From NCBI GenBank assembly GCA_016839745.1, contig JAEOTS010000104.1, positions 1 through 15,213 of the forward strand: 15,213 nt of DNA, given 5' to 3'. The position numbers were made by a program, and so were the translations under genes. Shown one piece after another: positions 1,065-13,672 of the stretch (positions are counted from its first letter, which is position 1; the number at the start of each line of letters is the position of its first letter). The notes beneath the pieces are model-generated. The model was given only the letters and a program-made list of their open reading frames with translations. It did not search any database and was not told the DNA's origin. This DNA comes from Promethearchaeota archaeon. GTDB taxonomy: Archaea > Asgardarchaeota > Lokiarchaeia > Sigyniarchaeales > SOKP01.

Positions 1065-1406
1065 TTACATCCAAGAAGCGACTTTGGGAATTTGTGTTAA
1101 TATATCCACAAGTTCGTCGTAGTCGATGTTTTTTATTCTTGGATCAATCCTACTTGGTTCAATTCCTCGCGCTAATAGATCTGGTAGAAGTGCAAATACA
1201 GATACTGGGAGGTTTAACAATCTATTTAATAAATCTGGCATTGAACCATTTTGTGATGTTCCAATTACCCCATCGTGAATTAGAACGATTGCGATACTAA
1301 CATTGTTTTCAATTTGTTCACTTACAATACTCAATAAGTTGTCTAGATACATCTGTTTTCTAGTACTGAATCCATATAAATATACAATATCTTTCTCAAT
1401 TTCCAT
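1065..1406 (-). CDS. dsrH: DsrH/TusB-like sulfur relay subunit
   Basis: VLIHDGVIG, FALLPDLLARGI and IDYDELVDIL...SWM match the DsrH/TusB pattern. Third gene of a dsrEFH-like run. AGGTGA lies 5 nt before ATG 1406; alternative starts are 1412 and 1421. Confidence 0.8.
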   Translation of the reverse strand: MEIEKDIVYLYGFSTRKQMYLDNLLSIVSEQIENNVSIAIVLIHDGVIGTSQNGSMPDLLNRLLNLPVSVFALLPDLLARGIEPSRIDPRIKNIDYDELVDILTQIPKVASWM

Positions 1407-1424
1407 TTTCATCACCTTCACATA

Positions 1425-1793
1425 TCAATATCTATAAGTTACATCTGCCTTTAAGATTAATTTTGAGATTTCTTGCATATTTGCCACTTTTACATTATCA
1501 TATTCTATTAAATCCGAATCTTTTATACCCGCGACTTCTAAAGCAGAATCTAAAACGAAAACCTCTAAATCAGAAAGTTCCATTAACCTGAAAATGTTCG
1601 AAGGGGCGTCCCGATTAACTTTCTCAGGGTCAAACTTCTTGGATAAGAAGTAAACTGAATCACCCATAAAGATTATCTTACATTCATCTAGATCTCCTAT
1701 TGCCATAATTCCCGCGCCCATTCGGATCGCTTCGACAGCTGAATTCTTACCAATGGGAGAATCCTCACATAAAATTACTACTGATTTGACCAT
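1425..1793 (-). CDS. dsrF: DsrF/TusC-like DsrE-family protein
   Basis: VILCEDSPIG...EAIRMGAG, IFMGDSVYFL, VFVLDSALEVAGI. No Cys at the position of the DsrE catalytic Cys. ATG 1793 is preceded by GGAGGT; the ORF-track start at 1814 overlaps dsrE. Confidence 0.75.
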   Translation of the reverse strand: MVKSVVILCEDSPIGKNSAVEAIRMGAGIMAIGDLDECKIIFMGDSVYFLSKKFDPEKVNRDAPSNIFRLMELSDLEVFVLDSALEVAGIKDSDLIEYDNVKVANMQEISKLILKADVTYRY

Positions 1794-1797
1794 GATA

Positions 1798-2166
1798 TCA
1801 ACCTCCGGGACCAAATACTATTACTTTATCAGATTCAGCCATCCATTCTGACAATCCTCCTAAACCTACTTGACACGCACTTTTAATCAATTCCTCAGAT
1901 TTTAAGCCAGTAAAGTTCATCCAAGTACTACAGGCAGATAGACTCATTTCATTTTCGTTAACAAAATTTTCGAGTCGTTTAGGTAAATCTCTCATCGATG
2001 TGCTTATATTTATTTCTCGTTTCGCGCTATACACTCCGCTCCCGTAAAAAAAAATACCCAATATTTTATGACCCTTCTCGAGTATTGCTTGTCCTAAGTT
2101 AAGCATCGTGTCTAGAGCTTCGAATTTATAAGGCTCAGCGCATATAACAAAGGTAAAAACAACCAT
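1798..2166 (-). CDS. dsrE: DsrE/TusD-like sulfurtransferase subunit
   Basis: EPY, GHKILGIFFYGSGVY, LSACSTW (persulfide Cys equivalent to TusD/DsrE C78), GLGGLSEWMAESDKVIVF. Confidence 0.85.
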   Translation of the reverse strand: MVVFTFVICAEPYKFEALDTMLNLGQAILEKGHKILGIFFYGSGVYSAKREINISTSMRDLPKRLENFVNENEMSLSACSTWMNFTGLKSEELIKSACQVGLGGLSEWMAESDKVIVFGPGG

Positions 2167-2183
2167 ATTAACAAAATATATTT

Positions 2184-2195
2184 TTTATAAATAAA
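2184..2195 (-). promoter_or_regulatory. Putative TATA box for the dsrEFH operon (probably a near-leaderless mRNA)
   Basis: TTTATTTATAAA on the minus strand about 20-30 nt before ATG 2166; no SD motif. Confidence 0.35.
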
Positions 2196-2241
2196 TAGTT
2201 AATCCTAATAATTTCATCAAAAAAGAAAAAAAAAGAGATTT

Positions 2242-3066
2242 TTACTCTCTTATGTTAGTTTGATCCACATTAATCAAGCGGTTCTTAAAAATCAATAGAA
2301 GCAATAATAAAGCAGTTGCTAACAAAGCTCCTATTAAGTAATCAGGAGTTTTTGTTCGAATAATCTGTGTTGGAATGTTAATCGTTATAATAGTTAATGC
2401 CGCAACTATAGCTAGCCACCAGCCGTTCTGCTTACGTTCTGCCATCAGAGGGATAGAACCAAGAAGCATAAGTACAGCAATCCAATTCACCTCACCGGAT
2501 AACGTTAAAATCCACCATTCTAAACCCGCGAAACCAGGTTGGCCAGGTCTTGTAAGTAACATTCTTTGTGCTCCAACGCCAATAACAAATGCATGTGTAG
2601 CCATCATCCCAATAAACGTGTATGTGATTAAATTTACTATTTTTTCAAGGAGACTATCGTGCTTATGGAAGAGTAATACGCTCCAAAAGCCCAGCAATCC
2701 AACAAACGAGATCATCATAGGGATGGGGAAACCCCCTACGAAACTTATGTAAGGGAGAAACATGAACATTCCACTTATGGAAGGTATTGCATAAGCAGTT
2801 AATTCTACCTTCATCGTCCATTCCTTACCTTTATAGATTGATGGGACAATTGTTAATAGCACAATTCCCGCCACATATCCTACAGCTCGCCATAACGGAT
2901 AAAATAAGGAGAATAGAGTTATTCCACTGCTATACTGAGGTCCTGCAGCTTGAAGCGCGACTAAGAGAGGATCCAGAGAGATCTGGACTAGAATAGGCGC
3001 GACAAGGAGCATGAAGAGGCCAATAGCAACTGCGAAGACGCATTTGATCAAATTAATCTTCTTCAT
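2242..3066 (-). CDS. Hypothetical polytopic membrane protein (about 8 TM, apparent 2x4-TM internal repeat)
   Basis: 274-aa ORF with about 8 hydrophobic segments, GGTGG upstream, and T-rich runs after the stop (A-runs at about 2218-2234 on the + strand). Confidence 0.8.
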   Translation of the reverse strand: MKKINLIKCVFAVAIGLFMLLVAPILVQISLDPLLVALQAAGPQYSSGITLFSLFYPLWRAVGYVAGIVLLTIVPSIYKGKEWTMKVELTAYAIPSISGMFMFLPYISFVGGFPIPMMISFVGLLGFWSVLLFHKHDSLLEKIVNLITYTFIGMMATHAFVIGVGAQRMLLTRPGQPGFAGLEWWILTLSGEVNWIAVLMLLGSIPLMAERKQNGWWLAIVAALTIITINIPTQIIRTKTPDYLIGALLATALLLLLLIFKNRLINVDQTNIRE

Positions 3067-3144
3067 TTAGTTTCCACCATATAATTATTTTTTATGAGTT
3101 ATATTGTGTGTGTTATTTATGTTAAGGAAGTAAATAAATATGTT

Positions 3145-3160
3145 ACTTTACCCGTAAAGT
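3145..3160. promoter_or_regulatory. Inverted repeat ACTTTAC-CC-GTAAAGT, candidate transcription factor operator
   Basis: Perfect 7-bp arms, with an additional ACTTTAC half-site at 3177-3183, upstream of the membrane gene. Confidence 0.4.
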
Positions 3161-3331
3161 TATTTTTACTAAAAGGACTTTACATTAGATGAAAGGTGCA
3201 AATTAGCGATATATTCATAAGATTTTAAAAATATTAAATATCTCTTAGTAAATTATTTAAATATCTCTTTTATTTAATAAATTTTAATGATTTAAAAGAA
3301 AAATCTTATGTCAAGTAAGATTTCTTTTTTT

Positions 3332-3351
3332 ATATTAGATAAGCCTAATAT
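3332..3351. promoter_or_regulatory. DtxR/SirR-family metal repressor operator candidate
   Basis: ATATTAG-ATAAGC-CTAATAT has perfect 7-bp arms and the TTAG-N6-CTAA core. It abuts TTTAAA (3351-3356) upstream of the FTR1 gene. Confidence 0.6.
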
Positions 3352-3420
3352 TTAAATCTCTAATCTATTCTTATTATCATAGGAAACTTACTTTAAAATA
3401 CATTATATGGTGATTAAATA

Positions 3421-4299
3421 ATGCTTTATCAATTGTCACTTGTTGACTTATCAATCCCAATGTTTTTAGCGTTAAGAGAAGGATTAGAAGCTGTGTTAGT
3501 CGTAGTAATACTTTTGTTATACTTAAGAAAAACTAACCAAAGGATTTATTATAAGTATGTGTATTTAGGAATTATTTTAGCCACAATCGTAAGTATTGCG
3601 TTTGCTATAATATTCTCATTAGCCTTTGGTGGATTTACCGGTATCCTTGAACAAATATTTGAAGGAACAACATTTATCATATCTGGAATTTTCATTTTAA
3701 CATTAGTGCTATGGGTAAGCAAAGAAGGCTCAAAAATGAGAGAAAATCTCGAGGGGAAGGTGAAAGATTCGATCAAAACTCAAAAGGTATTTTCAATTTC
3801 AATTACCACATTTATTATTATAATAAGAGAAGGAATTGAATTAATCTTACTAACGACAGGTGCTACATCAATAAGTTCCTTAAATCAGGTTAGTGTTATA
3901 TTAGGTTCAATTATTGGGTTAGCAATTTCGATACTGATTGGGGTATTAATTTTCTATGGGATACAATCGATAAACCTGAGCATATTTTTCAAAATAACAA
4001 ATGTAATGCTAATAATATTTGCTGCAGGATTAATTACATATGGAATTCACGAGTTTATTGAGGCGGGAATAATTAACCCGATTATTAATGAAGTATGGAA
4101 TATTAAGCACATATTACCGGAAAAATTTCCTGATGGCAACCCTTCAACTCCTGAATTTTTAGAAATTATTGGGGCATTGCTAAAAGCTCTCTTTGGGTAT
4201 AATGCTAATCCCTCTTTGCTAGAAGTAATTATTTATCCAGTTTTATTAATCTCTATTGGTTTGATCTCATTGTTAATCTGGAGAAAAAATAATAACTAG
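3421..4299 (+). CDS. ftr1: FTR1/EfeU family high-affinity iron permease
   Basis: Two REGxE motifs (LREGLEAVL, IREGIELIL), about 7 TM, AAGLITYGIHEFIEAG, LKALFGYNANPS. SD GGTGA at 3409-3413. Confidence 0.93.
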   Translation: MLYQLSLVDLSIPMFLALREGLEAVLVVVILLLYLRKTNQRIYYKYVYLGIILATIVSIAFAIIFSLAFGGFTGILEQIFEGTTFIISGIFILTLVLWVSKEGSKMRENLEGKVKDSIKTQKVFSISITTFIIIIREGIELILLTTGATSISSLNQVSVILGSIIGLAISILIGVLIFYGIQSINLSIFFKITNVMLIIFAAGLITYGIHEFIEAGIINPIINEVWNIKHILPEKFPDGNPSTPEFLEIIGALLKALFGYNANPSLLEVIIYPVLLISIGLISLLIWRKNNN

Positions 4300-4318
4300 A
4301 TTTTTTTCTTTAATTTTT
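4300..4318 (+). terminator. Oligo-T archaeal terminator after ftr1
   Basis: T-rich tract directly after the stop codon, between convergent genes. Confidence 0.4.
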
Positions 4319-4345
4319 AAGGATAGAGAAATTATACTTTTATTC

Positions 4346-5296
4346 TTATTTGGAATAATGGTCAGGTTCAGGATGTACCTCGTGTAAAAATGTAAGATCA
4401 AAAATGTCCCTAATTCGTAGCTCTTTTTTAATATAACCTAGATCTTTGAGAGCCTTCACGAATTCCATTGTAGATTTAATATATCCTTCTGAAAGTGCTA
4501 TGCAATATTTAGGAGAGATTTTCAACACATCTGAAACATACTTTTCGGTTAAGATTTCAAAAGTTTTTGATATAATATTAGCTGCCTTTGAAGGAGATTC
4601 TCTAAGTAATAAAGACGCTTCCTTATTGTGTTTTAAGAATTCTAATACGGTTTCAGGATGGTTTTCTATTATATTTTCGTGAAAGAAGATACCATAACTC
4701 GGATTATCCTTCCATAAATATTGAGGAGGAATTATTACATGGGAATCAAAAATGGTTGAAGAAAAAACTGCTAGAGCAGGCGTACCGACTCCTCCTTCAA
4801 TTTTTCCCTTTTTTATATCTGTAGCGATAAATTCTGCTTGTTTATAATGTTTTACTTCAATATCACCCAATAGATTGTACTTTTCTAAATAAAAATTAAG
4901 GATTACATCGTGAATAGATCCTTTACTTGGAACTCCAATAGCACTTCCTTTGAATTGAGAAAAAACGTTAGAAAGATTATTATTAAACTGAGTTAATGTT
5001 TTATAATCTTTGTTAGCAACCATTATGGTTCCTTCCACATGACCGCCAGCTACACACTTGATGGGTACTCCTTTGTCAATTCCAATTATTGCGGGGGGTA
5101 ATCCCATGTAACATATTTCTAAATTATTATTTTGGAAAGCTTCGATCATCGCGGGACCTGTTCCAAACAATTTCCACTGAATGTCCCTGCTAAAGTCTCT
5201 TTTTAAGTCCTTATTTCCCATTATTACAAAATTAGCATGATACGCCGTAGAGAGGTGACCAATCCTCAAATTATTTTTTTTAATCAAAAGCACCAA
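4346..5296 (-). CDS. SsuA/TauA/NMT1-like (type II periplasmic-binding fold) protein lacking a signal peptide
   Basis: LRIGHL, FGTGPAMIEAF, YMGLPPAIIG, KGSAIGVPSKGSIHDVIL, IIENHPETVLEFLK, LKDLGYI. No permease or ATPase gene in the window. Confidence 0.85.
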   Translation of the reverse strand: MVLLIKKNNLRIGHLSTAYHANFVIMGNKDLKRDFSRDIQWKLFGTGPAMIEAFQNNNLEICYMGLPPAIIGIDKGVPIKCVAGGHVEGTIMVANKDYKTLTQFNNNLSNVFSQFKGSAIGVPSKGSIHDVILNFYLEKYNLLGDIEVKHYKQAEFIATDIKKGKIEGGVGTPALAVFSSTIFDSHVIIPPQYLWKDNPSYGIFFHENIIENHPETVLEFLKHNKEASLLLRESPSKAANIISKTFEILTEKYVSDVLKISPKYCIALSEGYIKSTMEFVKALKDLGYIKKELRIRDIFDLTFLHEVHPEPDHYSK

Positions 5297-5422
5297 AATT
5301 TTTATTTTGAAATTACACTAACACCACTTTGTTTACAATTTATAACCACAATAATTAATTTCTTTTAATTTTTTTAAGTTTTTGATTATAAATTTAAATT
5401 GAAATAAACAACCATCATCCAA

Positions 5423-5710
5423 ATGATTGACATTAGAATAAATTTTTTATCGCTACTTGCAGATATTACTAAAATCAAAGAATTAGATTTATCGGTTCAA
5501 AAAAATTCTACTGTTAAAGAGATTATTAAAAGCCTTATTTTAAAATTTGGAGAAGAGTTTGAAACAGCAATTTTGGATTCCCCAGATTCTTTAAGTAAAT
5601 ACATAATTCTAGGTTTAAACGGTAAAGATATTCGAACACTTAATAATTTAGATACCATCGTTAACCATCATGATGAAATTCTACTTTTACCTGCGATAGC
5701 TGGAGGATAA
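5423..5710 (+). CDS. MoaD/ThiS/SAMP ubiquitin-like sulfur carrier
   Basis: 95-aa beta-grasp pattern: TVKEII, LNGKDIRTLNNLDT, C-terminal LLPAIAGG. Confidence 0.92.
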   Translation: MIDIRINFLSLLADITKIKELDLSVQKNSTVKEIIKSLILKFGEEFETAILDSPDSLSKYIILGLNGKDIRTLNNLDTIVNHHDEILLLPAIAGG

Positions 5711-5741
5711 AAAGAATAGGGCCAAAAATTTTCAATACAAT

Positions 5742-6005
5742 TTAGAGTTTCTTTAGAATCATGATCCATTCTGATTTTTCAGAAGGATTTTCTTTTATTT
5801 CTACTAGTTCTGCAATACTTTGTCTTTTACAACTTTCAGGGATATTCTTAAGAGCTGCCGGAAAATCTAAATAAATTTCTAAAAATGCATCCGTTTCGAG
5901 TTCTTCTATAGCTAATTTCGTGTAAACAAATGTTAGTGGACACACCTTACCTCGAATATCTAGTTGTTTACTGATTTTGTAACCTGGTTTATTTTTACTA
6001 CTCAT
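5742..6005 (-). CDS. tusA: TusA/SirA family sulfurtransferase
   Basis: LDIRGKVCPLTFV (TusA CPxP-like motif), LEIYLDFPAALKNIP. ATG 6005 overlaps the E1 stop by 8 nt; the ORF track starts at 6014. Confidence 0.9.
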   Translation of the reverse strand: MSSKNKPGYKISKQLDIRGKVCPLTFVYTKLAIEELETDAFLEIYLDFPAALKNIPESCKRQSIAELVEIKENPSEKSEWIMILKKL

Positions 6006-6807
6006 TGCACGCATCTAAACCCCCATAATTCGTGCTCTCGACTAAATCTCTTGCGTTATCTCCGCATGCCATACAATTATCATTTCTGTGTACCTCTATA
6101 AAATCAAAACTGTTTCTTAAAAGATCTACGTACATTATTTTGTTTGTTAACAATTCCCCTATACCTAATAAATATTTTAACGCTTCATTAGCTTCCAAAC
6201 AACCTAAAACTCCAGGAACAAAACCAATCACTCCTGCTTGAGAACACGACATACTAGAATCACCCTCAGTGCTATCTCCAAACACACACCTGTAGCACGA
6301 AGTTTTATTTTCAGGAACTACAGTCATAATCTGCCCGTGAAATCTCAAAACTCCCGCAATCGTGAATGGAATTCGTAGGCTAACACATGTATCATTAATT
6401 AACATCTTCGTTGGAATGTTATCCGAACCTTCAATAACAAAATCTGAATTTTTAAGCAATTTTTTAGAATTTTTAGGCGTAATTCTATCGTTAACCACCT
6501 CTATCTTACAATCGGGATTTAACGAATTTAGCTTTTCTGTGGCGCTAGTAGTTTTTTTCCTATTAATGTCCTCTGTAAAATGTAATATTTGTCTATGTAA
6601 ATTTGATATTTCTATAGTATCAAAGTCGATAATCTGTAGAGCCCCGACGCCAGCGGCAGTTAAGTAGATAGCGGTTGACGATCCGAGCGCTCCGAGCCCA
6701 ATTACTGTAATTTTCGAACTCAGCAACTTCTTCTGTCCTATTCCTCCTACTTCTTTTAACACTATTTGACGAGAATATCGTTCGATCTGATCTTTAGTTA
6801 AATCCAT
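5998..6807 (-). CDS. moeB: HesA/MoeB/ThiF family E1-like ubiquitin-like-protein adenylyltransferase (UbaA-like)
   Basis: RYSRQIVL, GLGALG nucleotide-binding loop, DFDTIEISNLHRQ, GSDN, Zn motifs CYRC and CMAC, active-site Cys in SCSQAGVIG. No rhodanese domain. Confidence 0.93.
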   Translation of the reverse strand: MDLTKDQIERYSRQIVLKEVGGIGQKKLLSSKITVIGLGALGSSTAIYLTAAGVGALQIIDFDTIEISNLHRQILHFTEDINRKKTTSATEKLNSLNPDCKIEVVNDRITPKNSKKLLKNSDFVIEGSDNIPTKMLINDTCVSLRIPFTIAGVLRFHGQIMTVVPENKTSCYRCVFGDSTEGDSSMSCSQAGVIGFVPGVLGCLEANEALKYLLGIGELLTNKIMYVDLLRNSFDFIEVHRNDNCMACGDNARDLVESTNYGGLDACNE

Positions 6808-6893: not shown

Positions 6894-7400
6894 TTAATCA
6901 AAATATTCTACAATCTCATCTAAAGATTTCCGTGGCCTTGGTTCTGGTATTCCTCCATAAGGGTACCCTAATGGAAGAATAGTCAATAAGTAGTCTTTTT
7001 CTTTAAGGTTTAATAATTGTTTTACTTTCTCTCTATTGATATTTCCAATAAAGCAAGTTCCAATACCAAAGTTCCAAGCGGCTAAAGCCATTTGCAGCGA
7101 AACAAAACACATATCCTGTAAATACCAATTTGGTTGTGCTGCAACATCACCAACAAGAGCTACTAATACCGGCGCTTCAGCTGCAAAAGTTCCAGTTGTA
7201 CATTCCTTAGCCACTTTTGAAATAAGTTCTGCATTTCGAATTACATAAAATTTCCATGGTTGTCGATTTACTGCGCTCCAGCACCAACGGGTGGCCTCAA
7301 ATATTTGAGTAAGAATATCGTCTTCTATAGGACGCGAATCATATCTTCGTATACTCCTTCTTTCCTTTAGTAATCTTATCTTTTCATTTTCACTCATCAT
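6894..7400 (-). CDS. Nitroreductase family (FMN-dependent) protein
   Basis: RRSIRRY, SAVNRQPWKF, QMALAAWNFGIGTCFIG, LPLGYP, RPRKSLDEIV. Confidence 0.92.
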   Translation of the reverse strand: MMSENEKIRLLKERRSIRRYDSRPIEDDILTQIFEATRWCWSAVNRQPWKFYVIRNAELISKVAKECTTGTFAAEAPVLVALVGDVAAQPNWYLQDMCFVSLQMALAAWNFGIGTCFIGNINREKVKQLLNLKEKDYLLTILPLGYPYGGIPEPRPRKSLDEIVEYFD

Positions 7401-8736: not shown

Positions 8737-9768
8737 ATGGTAGTCCTTTTCGAATCGTATGGAAATTTTACCTCAGGTCAGACTTCATACAGGGCTTTAA
8801 TTTCAAGAAAGTCCAGAGGAACGATTACATTAACAGATAAGGAATTCTTGTTTAAATCCGAAAAAGACAACATTTTGTTTCATTTGAGAACGAACAATAT
8901 TGAAAATTTCTCGGTAAAGAATCGATTCAAACTTCCAACTATAGAATTGATAAGCGTCCAAGGAATTAGTTACACCTTTTATCCACATAAAAAAGAGAGA
9001 GGTTCACTTACTACTTCAAAAAAAGCAACCGAAGATTTATTTAGGGAACTGACGCGTAGTACGTTTAAAAAGGAAAACCCCATTCTATTTGAAACTATAG
9101 GGAGTCTCAAGAACAGCGAATCGGAGGAAGCAATTTTTACATCTAAAATATTAACTGGAGTCATCTTTCTGAACGAGGATTACTTATCGTTTAAACCTTT
9201 TAGTGAGAAATCGATCACTCAAATCTCTATCTTAAATATTATCAATATCTCAAGAGATGCATCAAAATCAGGTCCTGCCGTAAACATTCAAACCAAAGAC
9301 GGTAAATTTTACTCGTTTACAACACTTAAAAAACACATCGGGAGGTATACAAAAGAAAAAGCTAAAACAGAAAGATTATTTGAGTTAATAAATCAGGCAA
9401 AAATATACAAATCGTCAGAGCAGACCCGGTTAGAAAAAGAAGAAAAAGAAAAAATCGATCGGGTTAAATCAATGATGGAAGTTTCACACAAATTAAGGCT
9501 TGATATGGTTAGAACGGCATTAGATATGAACGATAAACTGTTTACTGAAAAGGTTTTCCAATGGGCAAAGCAATTTAACTTCTTAATAGATGGAGATTAT
9601 TTAATTATTAATCAGGAAACAGCGACAGATTTCCTTAATGATTTATCTACAGGAACTAACATCTTATCTCGGAGGGGGATAAAGATAAGGTGTCGATTTT
9701 GCGAGAGGTTAATTGAATATGGGGCTAGAATTTGTCCCTATTGTGGAAAGGAAATCATTAATTCTTAA
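8737..9768 (+). CDS. Hypothetical protein: two PH/GRAM-like domains, a helical (winged-helix-like) domain and a C-terminal Zn ribbon
   Basis: Internal repeat (GTITLTDKEFLFK / GVIFLNEDYLSFK; TEDLFRELTR / TERLFELINQ) and CRFC-x10-CPYC. Confidence 0.75.
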   Translation: MVVLFESYGNFTSGQTSYRALISRKSRGTITLTDKEFLFKSEKDNILFHLRTNNIENFSVKNRFKLPTIELISVQGISYTFYPHKKERGSLTTSKKATEDLFRELTRSTFKKENPILFETIGSLKNSESEEAIFTSKILTGVIFLNEDYLSFKPFSEKSITQISILNIINISRDASKSGPAVNIQTKDGKFYSFTTLKKHIGRYTKEKAKTERLFELINQAKIYKSSEQTRLEKEEKEKIDRVKSMMEVSHKLRLDMVRTALDMNDKLFTEKVFQWAKQFNFLIDGDYLIINQETATDFLNDLSTGTNILSRRGIKIRCRFCERLIEYGARICPYCGKEIINS

Positions 9769-13105: not shown

Positions 13106-13672
13106 TTATTGTGTTAACAGCTGAATATTCCCATAAACCAATAATTTTTCAATAATACTTTGAAACAATAAATCCACATTTTCTCCGGTTTTTGAAGAAC
13201 ATTCGATGTAATCGAAATTTTTTCGTACTGTACAAATAGCTACAATATCCTCCCAATTAAAAGATCTATGGTCTTCTAAATCTAATTTTCCACCAACTAC
13301 TATTAAAGGAAATTTTGGATCCTGATTATTAAGTCCTTCGTTGAATGTTAGAAGCCATTTATCTATATTCGTAATGCTATCGCGATTAGTAATATCACAC
13401 ATAAAAATAGCGGCAGAAGATCCTTGTGCATAGCTAGGTAAAAGCGAGTTAAACCGAGATTCGCCCGCAAAATCCCAAATTTGAAGTTTTATGCGCGCTG
13501 AGTCTGTTTCAATGAATTTCATTAGAATATCTGCTCCTATAGTTGATTTTAGATCACGATCAAATTTAGCAGTTATATATCGGTTGATCAATGTTGACTT
13601 ACCAACACCAGAATCTCCAAATACACACATTTTGAAAGCTAAATTAAGTTTCTCCATTTTTATATTACTCAA
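13106..13672 (-). CDS. Rab/Ras-like small GTPase (eukaryotic signature protein)
   Basis: G1 GDSGVGKS, G2 STIG, G3 WDFAGE, G4 GKLD, G5 CSSK, and RabF-like IGAD, KLQIW, RFNSL. Alternative start ATG 13657. Confidence 0.93.
   Translation of the reverse strand: MSNIKMEKLNLAFKMCVFGDSGVGKSTLINRYITAKFDRDLKSTIGADILMKFIETDSARIKLQIWDFAGESRFNSLLPSYAQGSSAAIFMCDITNRDSITNIDKWLLTFNEGLNNQDPKFPLIVVGGKLDLEDHRSFNWEDIVAICTVRKNFDYIECSSKTGENVDLLFQSIIEKLLVYGNIQLLTQ

Follow-up and report, generated by a model that had tools for sequence, protein, structure and literature searches.

An E1–TusA–ubiquitin-like protein–SsuA-fold cassette and a separable dsrEFH operon with a proposed sulfur relay in a Lokiarchaeia genome

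Ubiquitin activation has its prokaryotic relatives in the sulfur-carrier systems built from an E1 enzyme and a ubiquitin-like protein (Ubl), and no known lineage is closer to the eukaryotes than the Asgard archaea. The fixed neighbour of a Ubl is normally its acceptor enzyme, as in the pairs MoaD–MoaE, ThiS–ThiG, CysO–CysM and TtuB–TtuA. One carrier type, listed as row 4e in the survey cited next, has its experimentally studied example in the HcyS/HcyF system of Wolinella. Neighbourhoods combining E1, TusA and ThiS/MoaD genes have been known since Iyer, Burroughs and Aravind described them in 2006; in row 4e the rhodanese-less E1 always occurs with SirA/TusA, and the sulfur is predicted to end on a Ubl thiocarboxylate (PMC1779556). 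A TusA-dependent pathway to 4-thiouridine in tRNA, using a ThiI+NFACT-R enzyme, was predicted by Burroughs and Aravind in 2014 (PMC4075521). Here we analyse a related locus in a 15,213-nucleotide stretch of DNA from a Promethearchaeota archaeon of the Lokiarchaeia (contig JAEOTS010000104.1, assembly GCA_016839745.1), called the window below. An earlier note on this stretch had proposed that its DsrEFH and TusA proteins may feed persulfide sulfur to an E1-activated Ubl.

We find that the window holds two units that are separable from each other: a cassette of four genes, encoding E1, TusA, the Ubl and a cytoplasmic protein of the SsuA fold, and an operon of dsrEFH headed by TM274, the gene of a 274-amino-acid membrane protein. 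This arrangement, together with the sulfur relay that we propose for it, is on balance the probable reading of the locus. Family matches and residue alignments bear out the inventory of the earlier note, which had placed dsrE (with its cysteine), dsrF, dsrH, a Ubl ending in Gly-Gly, tusA and an E1 gene within 5.8 kb. The most conserved partner of the Ubl, the SsuA-fold protein at 4346-5296, was left uncounted there. The features of the two units are as follows.

5998-6807, minus strand: E1 of the MoeB/ThiF/UbaA type, 269 amino acids (Pfam ThiF, 254 bits); rhodanese domain absent

5742-6014, minus strand: TusA (Pfam TusA, 61.7 bits), with its cysteine within GKVCPLT; its start overlaps the E1 stop

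5423-5710, plus strand: Ubl of the ThiS/MoaD/SAMP type (Pfam ThiS, 39.8 bits), C-terminus AIAGG

5297-5422, no strand: divergent intergenic region between the SsuA-fold and Ubl genes, with an AT-rich core at 5336-5360 (consensus TTTATAACCAAAATAATTAATTT)

4346-5296, minus strand: cytoplasmic protein of the NMT1_2/SsuA/TauA fold (Pfam NMT1_2, 65 bits; TIGR01728 SsuA_fam, 81.5 bits, below its cut-off)

2242-3066, minus strand: TM274, multi-pass membrane protein of 274 amino acids, without family match; heads the dsrEFH operon in this subclade

1798-2166, minus strand: DsrE/TusD-like subunit (Pfam DsrE, 55 bits; TIGR03012, 56.9 bits, below its cut-off of 89.25); Cys79 kept

1425-1814, minus strand: DsrF/TusC-like subunit of the DsrE fold (Pfam DsrE, 46.8 bits; TIGR03010, 39.8 bits, below its cut-off of 94.15)

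1065-1421, minus strand: DsrH/TusB-like subunit without cysteine (Pfam DsrH, 46.8 bits; TIGR03011, 50.2 bits, passing its cut-off of 49.2)

The division into two units emerges from the comparison of 70 Asgard-type loci drawn from species representatives. The Ubl gene lies within the locus, beside the SsuA-fold gene, in 68 of the 70; in 51 loci E1 and TusA are no more than 6 kb from the Ubl. The genes for ThiI+NFACT-R and CysK are present in 21 loci each and cysE in 19; DsrEFH occurs within 6 kb in just 11, and the iron permease gene FTR1 in seven. The order of conservation is the Ubl with the SsuA-fold protein first, the E1–TusA pair second, and then variable clients and neighbours, DsrEFH among them. 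At some 20 E1 orthologues, provided that the contig is long enough, the neighbourhood always includes TusA, the Ubl and the gene of the NMT1/SsuA-like protein, and DsrEFH is found in about half of the long loci. In relatives, a 345-amino-acid ThiI+NFACT-R protein, cysE, cysK, IscU or an AsnC-type regulator is often inserted between TusA and the Ubl. The connection of TusA, E1 and Ubl drawn in the earlier note is thereby upheld, with tusA overlapping the E1 stop and the E1–TusA pair retained at the level of the order, in families f1 and f2. The place given there to DsrEFH as an integral member of the relay is not supported in that form.

Three close, cassette-less relatives (G014, G035 and G002; loci L219-L221) show the separation directly. 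They retain, with the flanks known from the window, the order HeH-NTR-(FTR1)-TM274-dsrE-dsrF-dsrH-GNAT, where NTR is a nitroreductase-family gene, and lack exactly the genes for E1, TusA, the Ubl and the SsuA-fold protein. NTR abuts TM274-dsrEFH or FTR1, which was left behind in L221. In a tree of DsrE, these three genomes, the window and its closest relative form a group of five members (SH-aLRT 98) among cassette-bearing lineages. Because the cassette-less relatives nest among cassette-bearing genomes, it is simplest to assume that the four genes were lost together, once, while dsrEFH stayed. About seven genomes of the genus have DsrEFH but no cassette; conversely, the cassette occurs without window-type DsrE in G022 (99% complete), G030 and G013. 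DsrEFH and the cassette are thus separable in both directions, and on our reading neither unit requires the other. The recurrence of the gene order in an independently assembled relative (L072/L125) shows that it is no assembly artefact.

The core of the cassette reaches beyond the loci with E1 and TusA. The SsuA-fold protein was found in 52 of 301 Asgard genomes, in families f1, f17, f18 and f24, and also in family f7 (G060). Its gene adjoins that of the Ubl in all five of these families and in Methanococcoides. In f17, f18 and f24 the Ubl gene stands directly beside the SsuA-fold gene with no E1, TusA or DsrEFH within 9 kb; in f24, as at L108, both genes run in the same direction with an overlap of 4 nucleotides, which is also seen in Methanococcoides (L204). 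The E1 homologues of these three families are 36-41% identical to the window E1 and about 350 amino acids long, with a C-terminal extension and no adjacent TusA. E1–TusA pairing was not found outside Lokiarchaeia.

The SsuA-fold protein has no signal peptide, its fold beginning at about residue 9, and no permease or ATPase gene of a transporter lies beside it in the window or in those loci of relatives whose flanks were read. AlphaFold2 models the protein with confidence (pLDDT 88). Foldseek ranks TauA (6ssy) and SsuA (2x26) as the top folds (E about 1e-18, TM score 0.76-0.81), with Thi5 and DszB lower. In 20 orthologues, down to 41% identity, C81, C265, H20, H86, H129, H308 and H313 are invariant, and the motifs STAYH, CVAGGHVEG, GSIH, NPSYGI and SPKYC are conserved. 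The invariant cysteines and histidines lie in loops and, by analogy with TauA and SsuA, would line the binding cleft. The closest protein sequence in the PDB is a zinc-bound binding protein of S. aureus (3un6), which has GHHEG where the SsuA-fold family has GGHVEG. By analogy with the Ubl–acceptor pairs named at the outset, the SsuA-fold protein is a candidate acceptor enzyme of the Ubl. A role of this NMT1-like protein as a synthase of hydroxymethylpyrimidine phosphate (HMP-P) of the THI5 type was considered and rejected: a profile search gave no match to Thi5 at the level of sequence, and the fold alone is similar.

Over its whole length the E1 can be aligned with E. coli ThiF; it has the nucleotide-binding glycine motif GLGALGS, both CxxC zinc motifs (CYRC and CMAC) and, in the crossover loop, the equivalent of Cys184 (E. 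coli ThiF numbering). Its scores lie under every NCBIfam equivalog cut-off (MoeB 253.6 bits against 266, UbaA 252.8 against 450, ThiF 232.8 against 275), and it is assignable to no single named equivalog among MoeB, ThiF, UbaA and MoeZ. It is an accessory paralogue: orthologues 66-86% identical to it occur in about 22 of 36 genomes of the same genus, and almost every genome of the genus, whether or not it carries the cassette, also has a housekeeping E1 that is about 44% identical to the window E1. In the source genome the housekeeping E1 is represented by contig-end fragments only (C40:3-209 and C97:12-380, about 44-51% identical). TusA keeps the cysteine of the CPxP motif as CPLT, with the second proline replaced by threonine, and the motif rG..CP.TFVyTK is conserved across 29 orthologues. 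The Ubl is closest to SAMP1 (48.3 bits, cut-off 60) and MoaD_arch (45.7 bits, cut-off 49.5), in both cases below the cut-off, and 105 of 108 Ubl orthologues end in Gly-Gly.

In the second unit, three tandem genes of the DsrE fold (E/D, F/C and H/B) form a tight operon (1065-2166). The active-site cysteine, Cys78 in both Allochromatium vinosum DsrE (2hy5_A) and E. coli TusD (2d1p_A), corresponds in alignments to Cys79 of the DsrE-like protein, and the surrounding ACsTW motif is conserved in 11 orthologues. The TusD- and TusC-like subunits miss the curated equivalog cut-offs, and only the TusB domain model is passed. In the DsrE tree, window-type DsrEFH forms one orthologous lineage distinct from the Hdr-linked type (SH-aLRT 89, for a short protein). 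No family match was found for TM274 among the Pfam and NCBIfam profiles, and the ESM Atlas gives unnamed clusters only.

We infer a sequence of steps for the relay from known family chemistry. The rhodanese-less E1 would adenylate the Ubl at its C-terminal Gly-Gly. TusA, whose gene is translationally coupled, would bring the persulfide sulfur, standing in for the rhodanese domain of MoeZ and Uba4, and the likely source of the persulfide is an IscS-type desulfurase encoded elsewhere in the genome. The expected product is a Ubl thiocarboxylate, which the SsuA/TauA-fold protein may use on a small anionic substrate, most likely a C2 or C3 sulfonate. In relatives, the E1–TusA pair may also serve a ThiI+NFACT-R tRNA thiolase, and it sits among cysE and cysK; this thiolase is absent from the source genome. 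The TM274-dsrEFH unit would act as a persulfide carrier of the TusBCD/DsrEFH type without DsrC/TusE, and it may exchange sulfur with the TusA of the cassette, because it has no TusA of its own.

Several points weigh against the two-unit reading with this relay. Gene order is partly inherited within one genus, so the locus counts overstate independence. The distant Ubl/SsuA-fold pairs without adjacent E1 or TusA mean that TusA is no universal part of the system. No fusion protein of TusA, with E1 or otherwise, was found among longer proteins, which is weak evidence. The SsuA-fold protein need not be an enzyme and could act as a sensor or chaperone. Because the source genome (3.53 Mb in 192 contigs) is 89% complete, the absences of ThiI+NFACT-R, MoaE and DsrC are provisional.

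Regarding the substrate, we consider one specific lead, although we judge it unlikely: that the Ubl and the SsuA-fold protein are a thiocarboxylate-dependent pair acting on a C2 or C3 sulfonate, for example converting sulfoacetaldehyde to coenzyme M (CoM) or a related mercaptosulfonate by reductive thiolation. In two Hydrothermarchaeales genomes the SsuA-fold gene is third, translationally coupled, after cysteate synthase (495 bits, over the cut-off) and a fused comDE, the gene of sulfopyruvate decarboxylase. Genes of the MtrH family, of a corrinoid activase and of a TfrB/HdrD-like protein lie upstream of the cysteate synthase-comDE-SsuA-fold genes there (L198:3633-6912, L203:2659-6942). In Methanosarcina the third position of the cs-comDE-MMP16 operon is held by MMP16/ComF, and a Methanosarcina acetivorans strain deleted for MMP16 depends on CoM when sulfide is left out of the medium (PMC12068725). 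Neither the two Hydrothermarchaeales genomes nor the complete chromosome of Atabeyarchaeum, in which comDE is next to the Ubl/SsuA-fold pair, yielded a COG1900 gene. By manual counts over 301 Asgard genomes, which are not independent of one another, a strong match to sulfopyruvate decarboxylase (ComE) occurs in 45 of the 52 genomes with the SsuA-fold protein and in 34 of the 249 without; within family f1 the figures are 26 of 30 and 14 of 39.

The source genome itself has a comDE-like gene, for a fused thiamine pyrophosphate enzyme resembling sulfopyruvate/phosphonopyruvate decarboxylase, within a cluster of the sulfoquinovose type (C136:18990-25637; L205:2990-9637). Besides this enzyme, the cluster encodes a YihQ-type sulfoquinovosidase/alpha-glucosidase (800 bits, over the cut-off), an SftI-like sulfoquinovose isomerase (227 bits, below the cut-off), a transaldolase/FSA-like protein and an MFS transporter. 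Two observations count against the CoM lead: the source genome has two COG1900 genes, and neither ComA nor cysteate synthase was found in it, so the complete classical CoM pathway is not seen. If the lead were true, the thiolation pair would be an alternative to ComF/MMP16. To our knowledge, Asgard archaea lack methyl-CoM reductase; they would gain a low-molecular-weight thiol, a possible substrate of their Hdr complexes.

Among the alternatives to the two-unit reading, the best placed is the hybrid relay of the earlier note, in which DsrEFH and TusA form one persulfide system feeding the E1-activated Ubl; we hold it to be doubtful. Window-type DsrEFH, a single lineage, does lie near the cassette, at a distance of 1-4 kb and in three or more arrangements, with FTR1 between, with the AsnC regulator between, or directly after the SsuA-fold gene (L080/L187, L192). 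In two genomes of family f2 (genus g2), E1–TusA stands between TusA-DsrEFH and DsrE2-HdrC, in the Hdr-linked cluster. This juxtaposition arose independently of that in the window, so a facultative link with DsrEFH is conceivable, and we assign such a functional link a low probability. No DsrC/TusE (PF04358) was found in the source genome or in any of the 81 genomes of the order, 38 of which are of high quality, so the DsrEFH trios must use another acceptor. The window trio has no TusA of its own, unlike the two paralogous trios of the genome, and DsrE3A-to-TusA transfer in Metallosphaera (PMC4175335) offers a precedent. Against the hybrid relay stand the low frequency of DsrEFH near the cassette, the persistence of dsrEFH beside TM274 and GNAT in three genomes from which the cassette has cleanly gone, and the cassettes without DsrEFH. 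Moreover, the window dsrEFH form a separate operon, two unrelated genes away from the cassette.

It is quite unlikely that the cassette leads to cysteine or homocysteine by way of a protein thiocarboxylate, in the manner of CysO/CysM, HcyS or MetM/MetO, with the SsuA-fold protein as a sensor of sulfur compounds or an accessory. This explanation draws on cysE and cysK standing between Ubl and TusA in about 20 of the 70 loci, on the neighbourhoods in rows 4c-4e of Iyer et al. 2006 (PMC1779556), and on G060 (L084:7287-10552), where a ThrC-like pyridoxal phosphate enzyme is encoded by a gene that overlaps that of the Ubl, with DUF169, E1 and TusA next in line and the SsuA-fold gene adjoining. The layout in G060, of family f7, is a MetM/MetO-like arrangement. 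However, the cysE and cysK genes of the source genome are on other contigs than the window, a MetM-like gene was not found in that genome, and the window open reading frames include no JAB/JAMM peptidase. The CysK linked in relatives is a typical member of the CysK equivalog (453 bits, over the cut-off), and distant families keep the Ubl/SsuA-fold pair in the absence of cysK.

The chance is similarly slim that the cassette serves tRNA thiolation, by formation of 4-thiouridine through ThiI+NFACT-R in relatives and of 2-thiouridine at position 34 through a single NcsA-type enzyme here. All 16 genomes of the genus with ThiI+NFACT-R carry the cassette or part of it, and no cassette-less genome has this enzyme. 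Its gene is usually third in the E1-tusA operon and adjoins E1 in family f2 too, so that the association is seen in two families; the TusA-dependent pathway was predicted for this enzyme (PMC4075521), and an NcsA-like gene is present on contig C94. Nevertheless, the cassette is kept in the source genome although no ThiI+NFACT-R gene was found there, the widespread housekeeping E1 could serve NcsA, and the constant partner of the Ubl is no PP-loop enzyme. The end use in tRNA thiolation suggested by the earlier note is plausible in relatives, but the ThiI+NFACT-R gene is missing here.

Another suggested end use, synthesis of the molybdenum or tungsten cofactor, is unlikely because MoaE was found neither in this genome nor in at least 10 others of the genus that carry the cassette. 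We rejected it for the source genome, which has no candidate for a MoaE partner of the MoaD-like Ubl; MoaE occurs in 12 of 42 genomes of the genus. Thiazole synthesis by ThiS–ThiG was likewise rejected, as ThiG (PF05690) gives only partial matches below threshold in the source genome. Finally, it is very unlikely that the Ubl is mainly a protein modifier, in the manner of SAMPylation or urmylation by a UbaA-like E1 with the sulfur genes as targets or coincidental neighbours, since its likeness to SAMP1, the UbaA score of its E1 and its Gly-Gly end are set against SAMP1 and UbaA scores below the equivalog cut-offs, the lack of a JAMM gene in the window and a tight coupling to TusA and sulfur-metabolism genes over about 70 loci that points to thiocarboxylate chemistry.

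The earlier note had suggested a search of the genome for DsrC/TusE, NcsA, MoaE and IscS/SufS. It had listed dsrC/tusE, mnmA, ncsA/ttuA, moaE and cysteine desulfurase genes as missing from the window, which is correct. A partner of the DsrC/TusE type was not found genome-wide either, nor was the MoaE that the cofactor proposal would need. One PP-loop gene of the NcsA/TtuA type is present (C94), and an IscS-type desulfurase is encoded in a TusA-IscS-IscU cluster (C144). In all, the genome has five ThiS-family genes, five ThiF-family matches, seven TusA genes and eight DsrE-family genes, which include two further DsrEFH trios: TusA-DsrE-DsrF-DsrH-DsrE2-HdrC on contig C18 and TusA-YeeE-like-DsrE-DsrF-DsrH on C149. 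Both of these trios have an adjacent TusA.

The cluster on C18 (17026-19553; L206:5026-7553) is rigidly conserved, with an Lrp gene beside it, and the contig ends within the cluster; the same order of Lrp, TusA, DsrEFH, DsrE2 and HdrC is found in eight relatives. The trio on C149 (15779-18130; L207) is preceded by TusA and a 349-amino-acid membrane protein that resembles YeeE/YedE by eye, and could be an arrangement of the thiosulfate-uptake type. On C164 (L208:574-2868) an aldehyde:ferredoxin oxidoreductase-like gene is followed by two genes of the ThiS/MoaD family.

The window is AT-rich (about 32% G+C), and the 5.8 kb with the sulfur genes, which alternate in strand, hold no fewer than five transcription units. 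Between dsrEFH and the genes of Ubl, TusA and E1 there are three others, for TM274, the FTR1 permease and the NMT1/SsuA-like protein. The core TTTATAACCAAAATAATTAATTT is conserved in 11 orthologous intergenic regions between the SsuA-fold and Ubl genes, and is probably a shared divergent promoter or operator. A GNAT acetyltransferase gene also lies within the window, beside dsrEFH. Two further neighbours are the following.

3421-4299, plus strand: iron permease of the FTR1/EfeU type (Pfam FTR1, 141 bits), an intervening neighbour outside the cassette

6894-7400, minus strand: nitroreductase-family gene NTR (Pfam Nitroreductase, 91.8 bits), the upstream flank of the cassette

The earlier note had called the genome Asgard-like from the letters alone, and rightly so: the source genome belongs to Lokiarchaeia, and its relatives are filed as Promethearchaeota/Lokiarchaeota. 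The window encodes a small GTPase of the Ras family (13106-13672, 135.8 bits) and a 343-amino-acid protein (8737-9768) with a weak POB3_N/PH-like match and a C-terminal zinc ribbon, which are eukaryote-like genes typical of Asgard archaea. The DNA datasets containing the stretch are marine-sediment metagenomes, possibly the source samples; no RNA dataset is listed.

The locus presents an accessory E1 with a separate TusA which, by family chemistry, would take the place of a fused rhodanese. Should the SsuA-fold protein prove to be an enzyme, protein thiocarboxylates would have in it a new type of acceptor, and the protein may connect them to CoM-type chemistry in organisms that make no methane. 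The comparison also sets a limit to the role of DsrEFH, as trios without DsrC/TusE are common in the order and are no obligate part of the E1/Ubl route.

How the window relates to described systems can be stated for each of its parts. The TM274-dsrEFH unit resembles the relays TusA-TusBCD-TusE-MnmA of E. coli and TusA-DsrEFH-DsrC of A. vinosum in its three tandem DsrE-fold genes, in the equivalent of Cys78 and in the presence of TusA genes in the genome. It differs from them in that TusE/DsrC was found in none of the 81 genomes of the order, the TusD and TusC cut-offs are not reached, DsrH has no cysteine, no TusA is adjacent and TM274 heads the operon. The SsuA-fold protein has the type II binding-protein fold of the NitT/TauT family, as do the SsuA and TauA binding proteins of ABC transporters, and differs from these in having no export signal or lipobox, permease or ATPase. 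With HMP-P synthase Thi5 and the desulfinase DszB it shares the fold and the cytoplasmic location, whereas its invariant residues are distinct and it pairs with a sulfur-carrier Ubl. Compared with ComF/MMP16 of methanogens (PMC12068725), whose place in the operon the SsuA-fold gene holds in Hydrothermarchaeales, operon position is the sole likeness: the SsuA-fold protein is of an unrelated fold and lacks the COG1900/HcyBio and ferredoxin domains.

The carrier genes have counterparts as well. With MoeZ/Uba4/MOCS3 and their carriers CysO, Urm1 and MoaD, the window E1 shares the zinc site and catalytic cysteine, and adenylation followed by persulfide attack to give a Ubl thiocarboxylate would be expected; the sulfur carrier would be a separate, translationally coupled TusA instead of a fused rhodanese, and MoaE is absent. 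From the predicted ThiI+NFACT-R/TusA pathway (PMC4075521), relatives encode, directly after tusA, a PP-loop protein of the ThiI type that ends in an NFACT-R domain; E1 and Ubl are not included in that pathway, and neither the window nor the source genome has the ThiI+NFACT-R gene. Row 4e (PMC1779556) likewise combines a rhodanese-less E1, TusA and a Gly-Gly Ubl. In contrast to row 4e, the window has no JAB peptidase, no genes of sulfate or sulfite assimilation and no O-acetylhomoserine sulfhydrylase, its relatives carry cysE/cysK instead, and it comes from an archaeal lineage (Asgard); PMC1779556 does not list the cytoplasmic SsuA-fold protein that is the constant partner of the Ubl here. The window belongs to the known E1/TusA/Ubl carrier type, and new in it are that the E1 is an accessory paralogue in Asgard archaea, that the partner has the SsuA fold, and that the neighbouring DsrEFH operon is separable and comes without DsrC.

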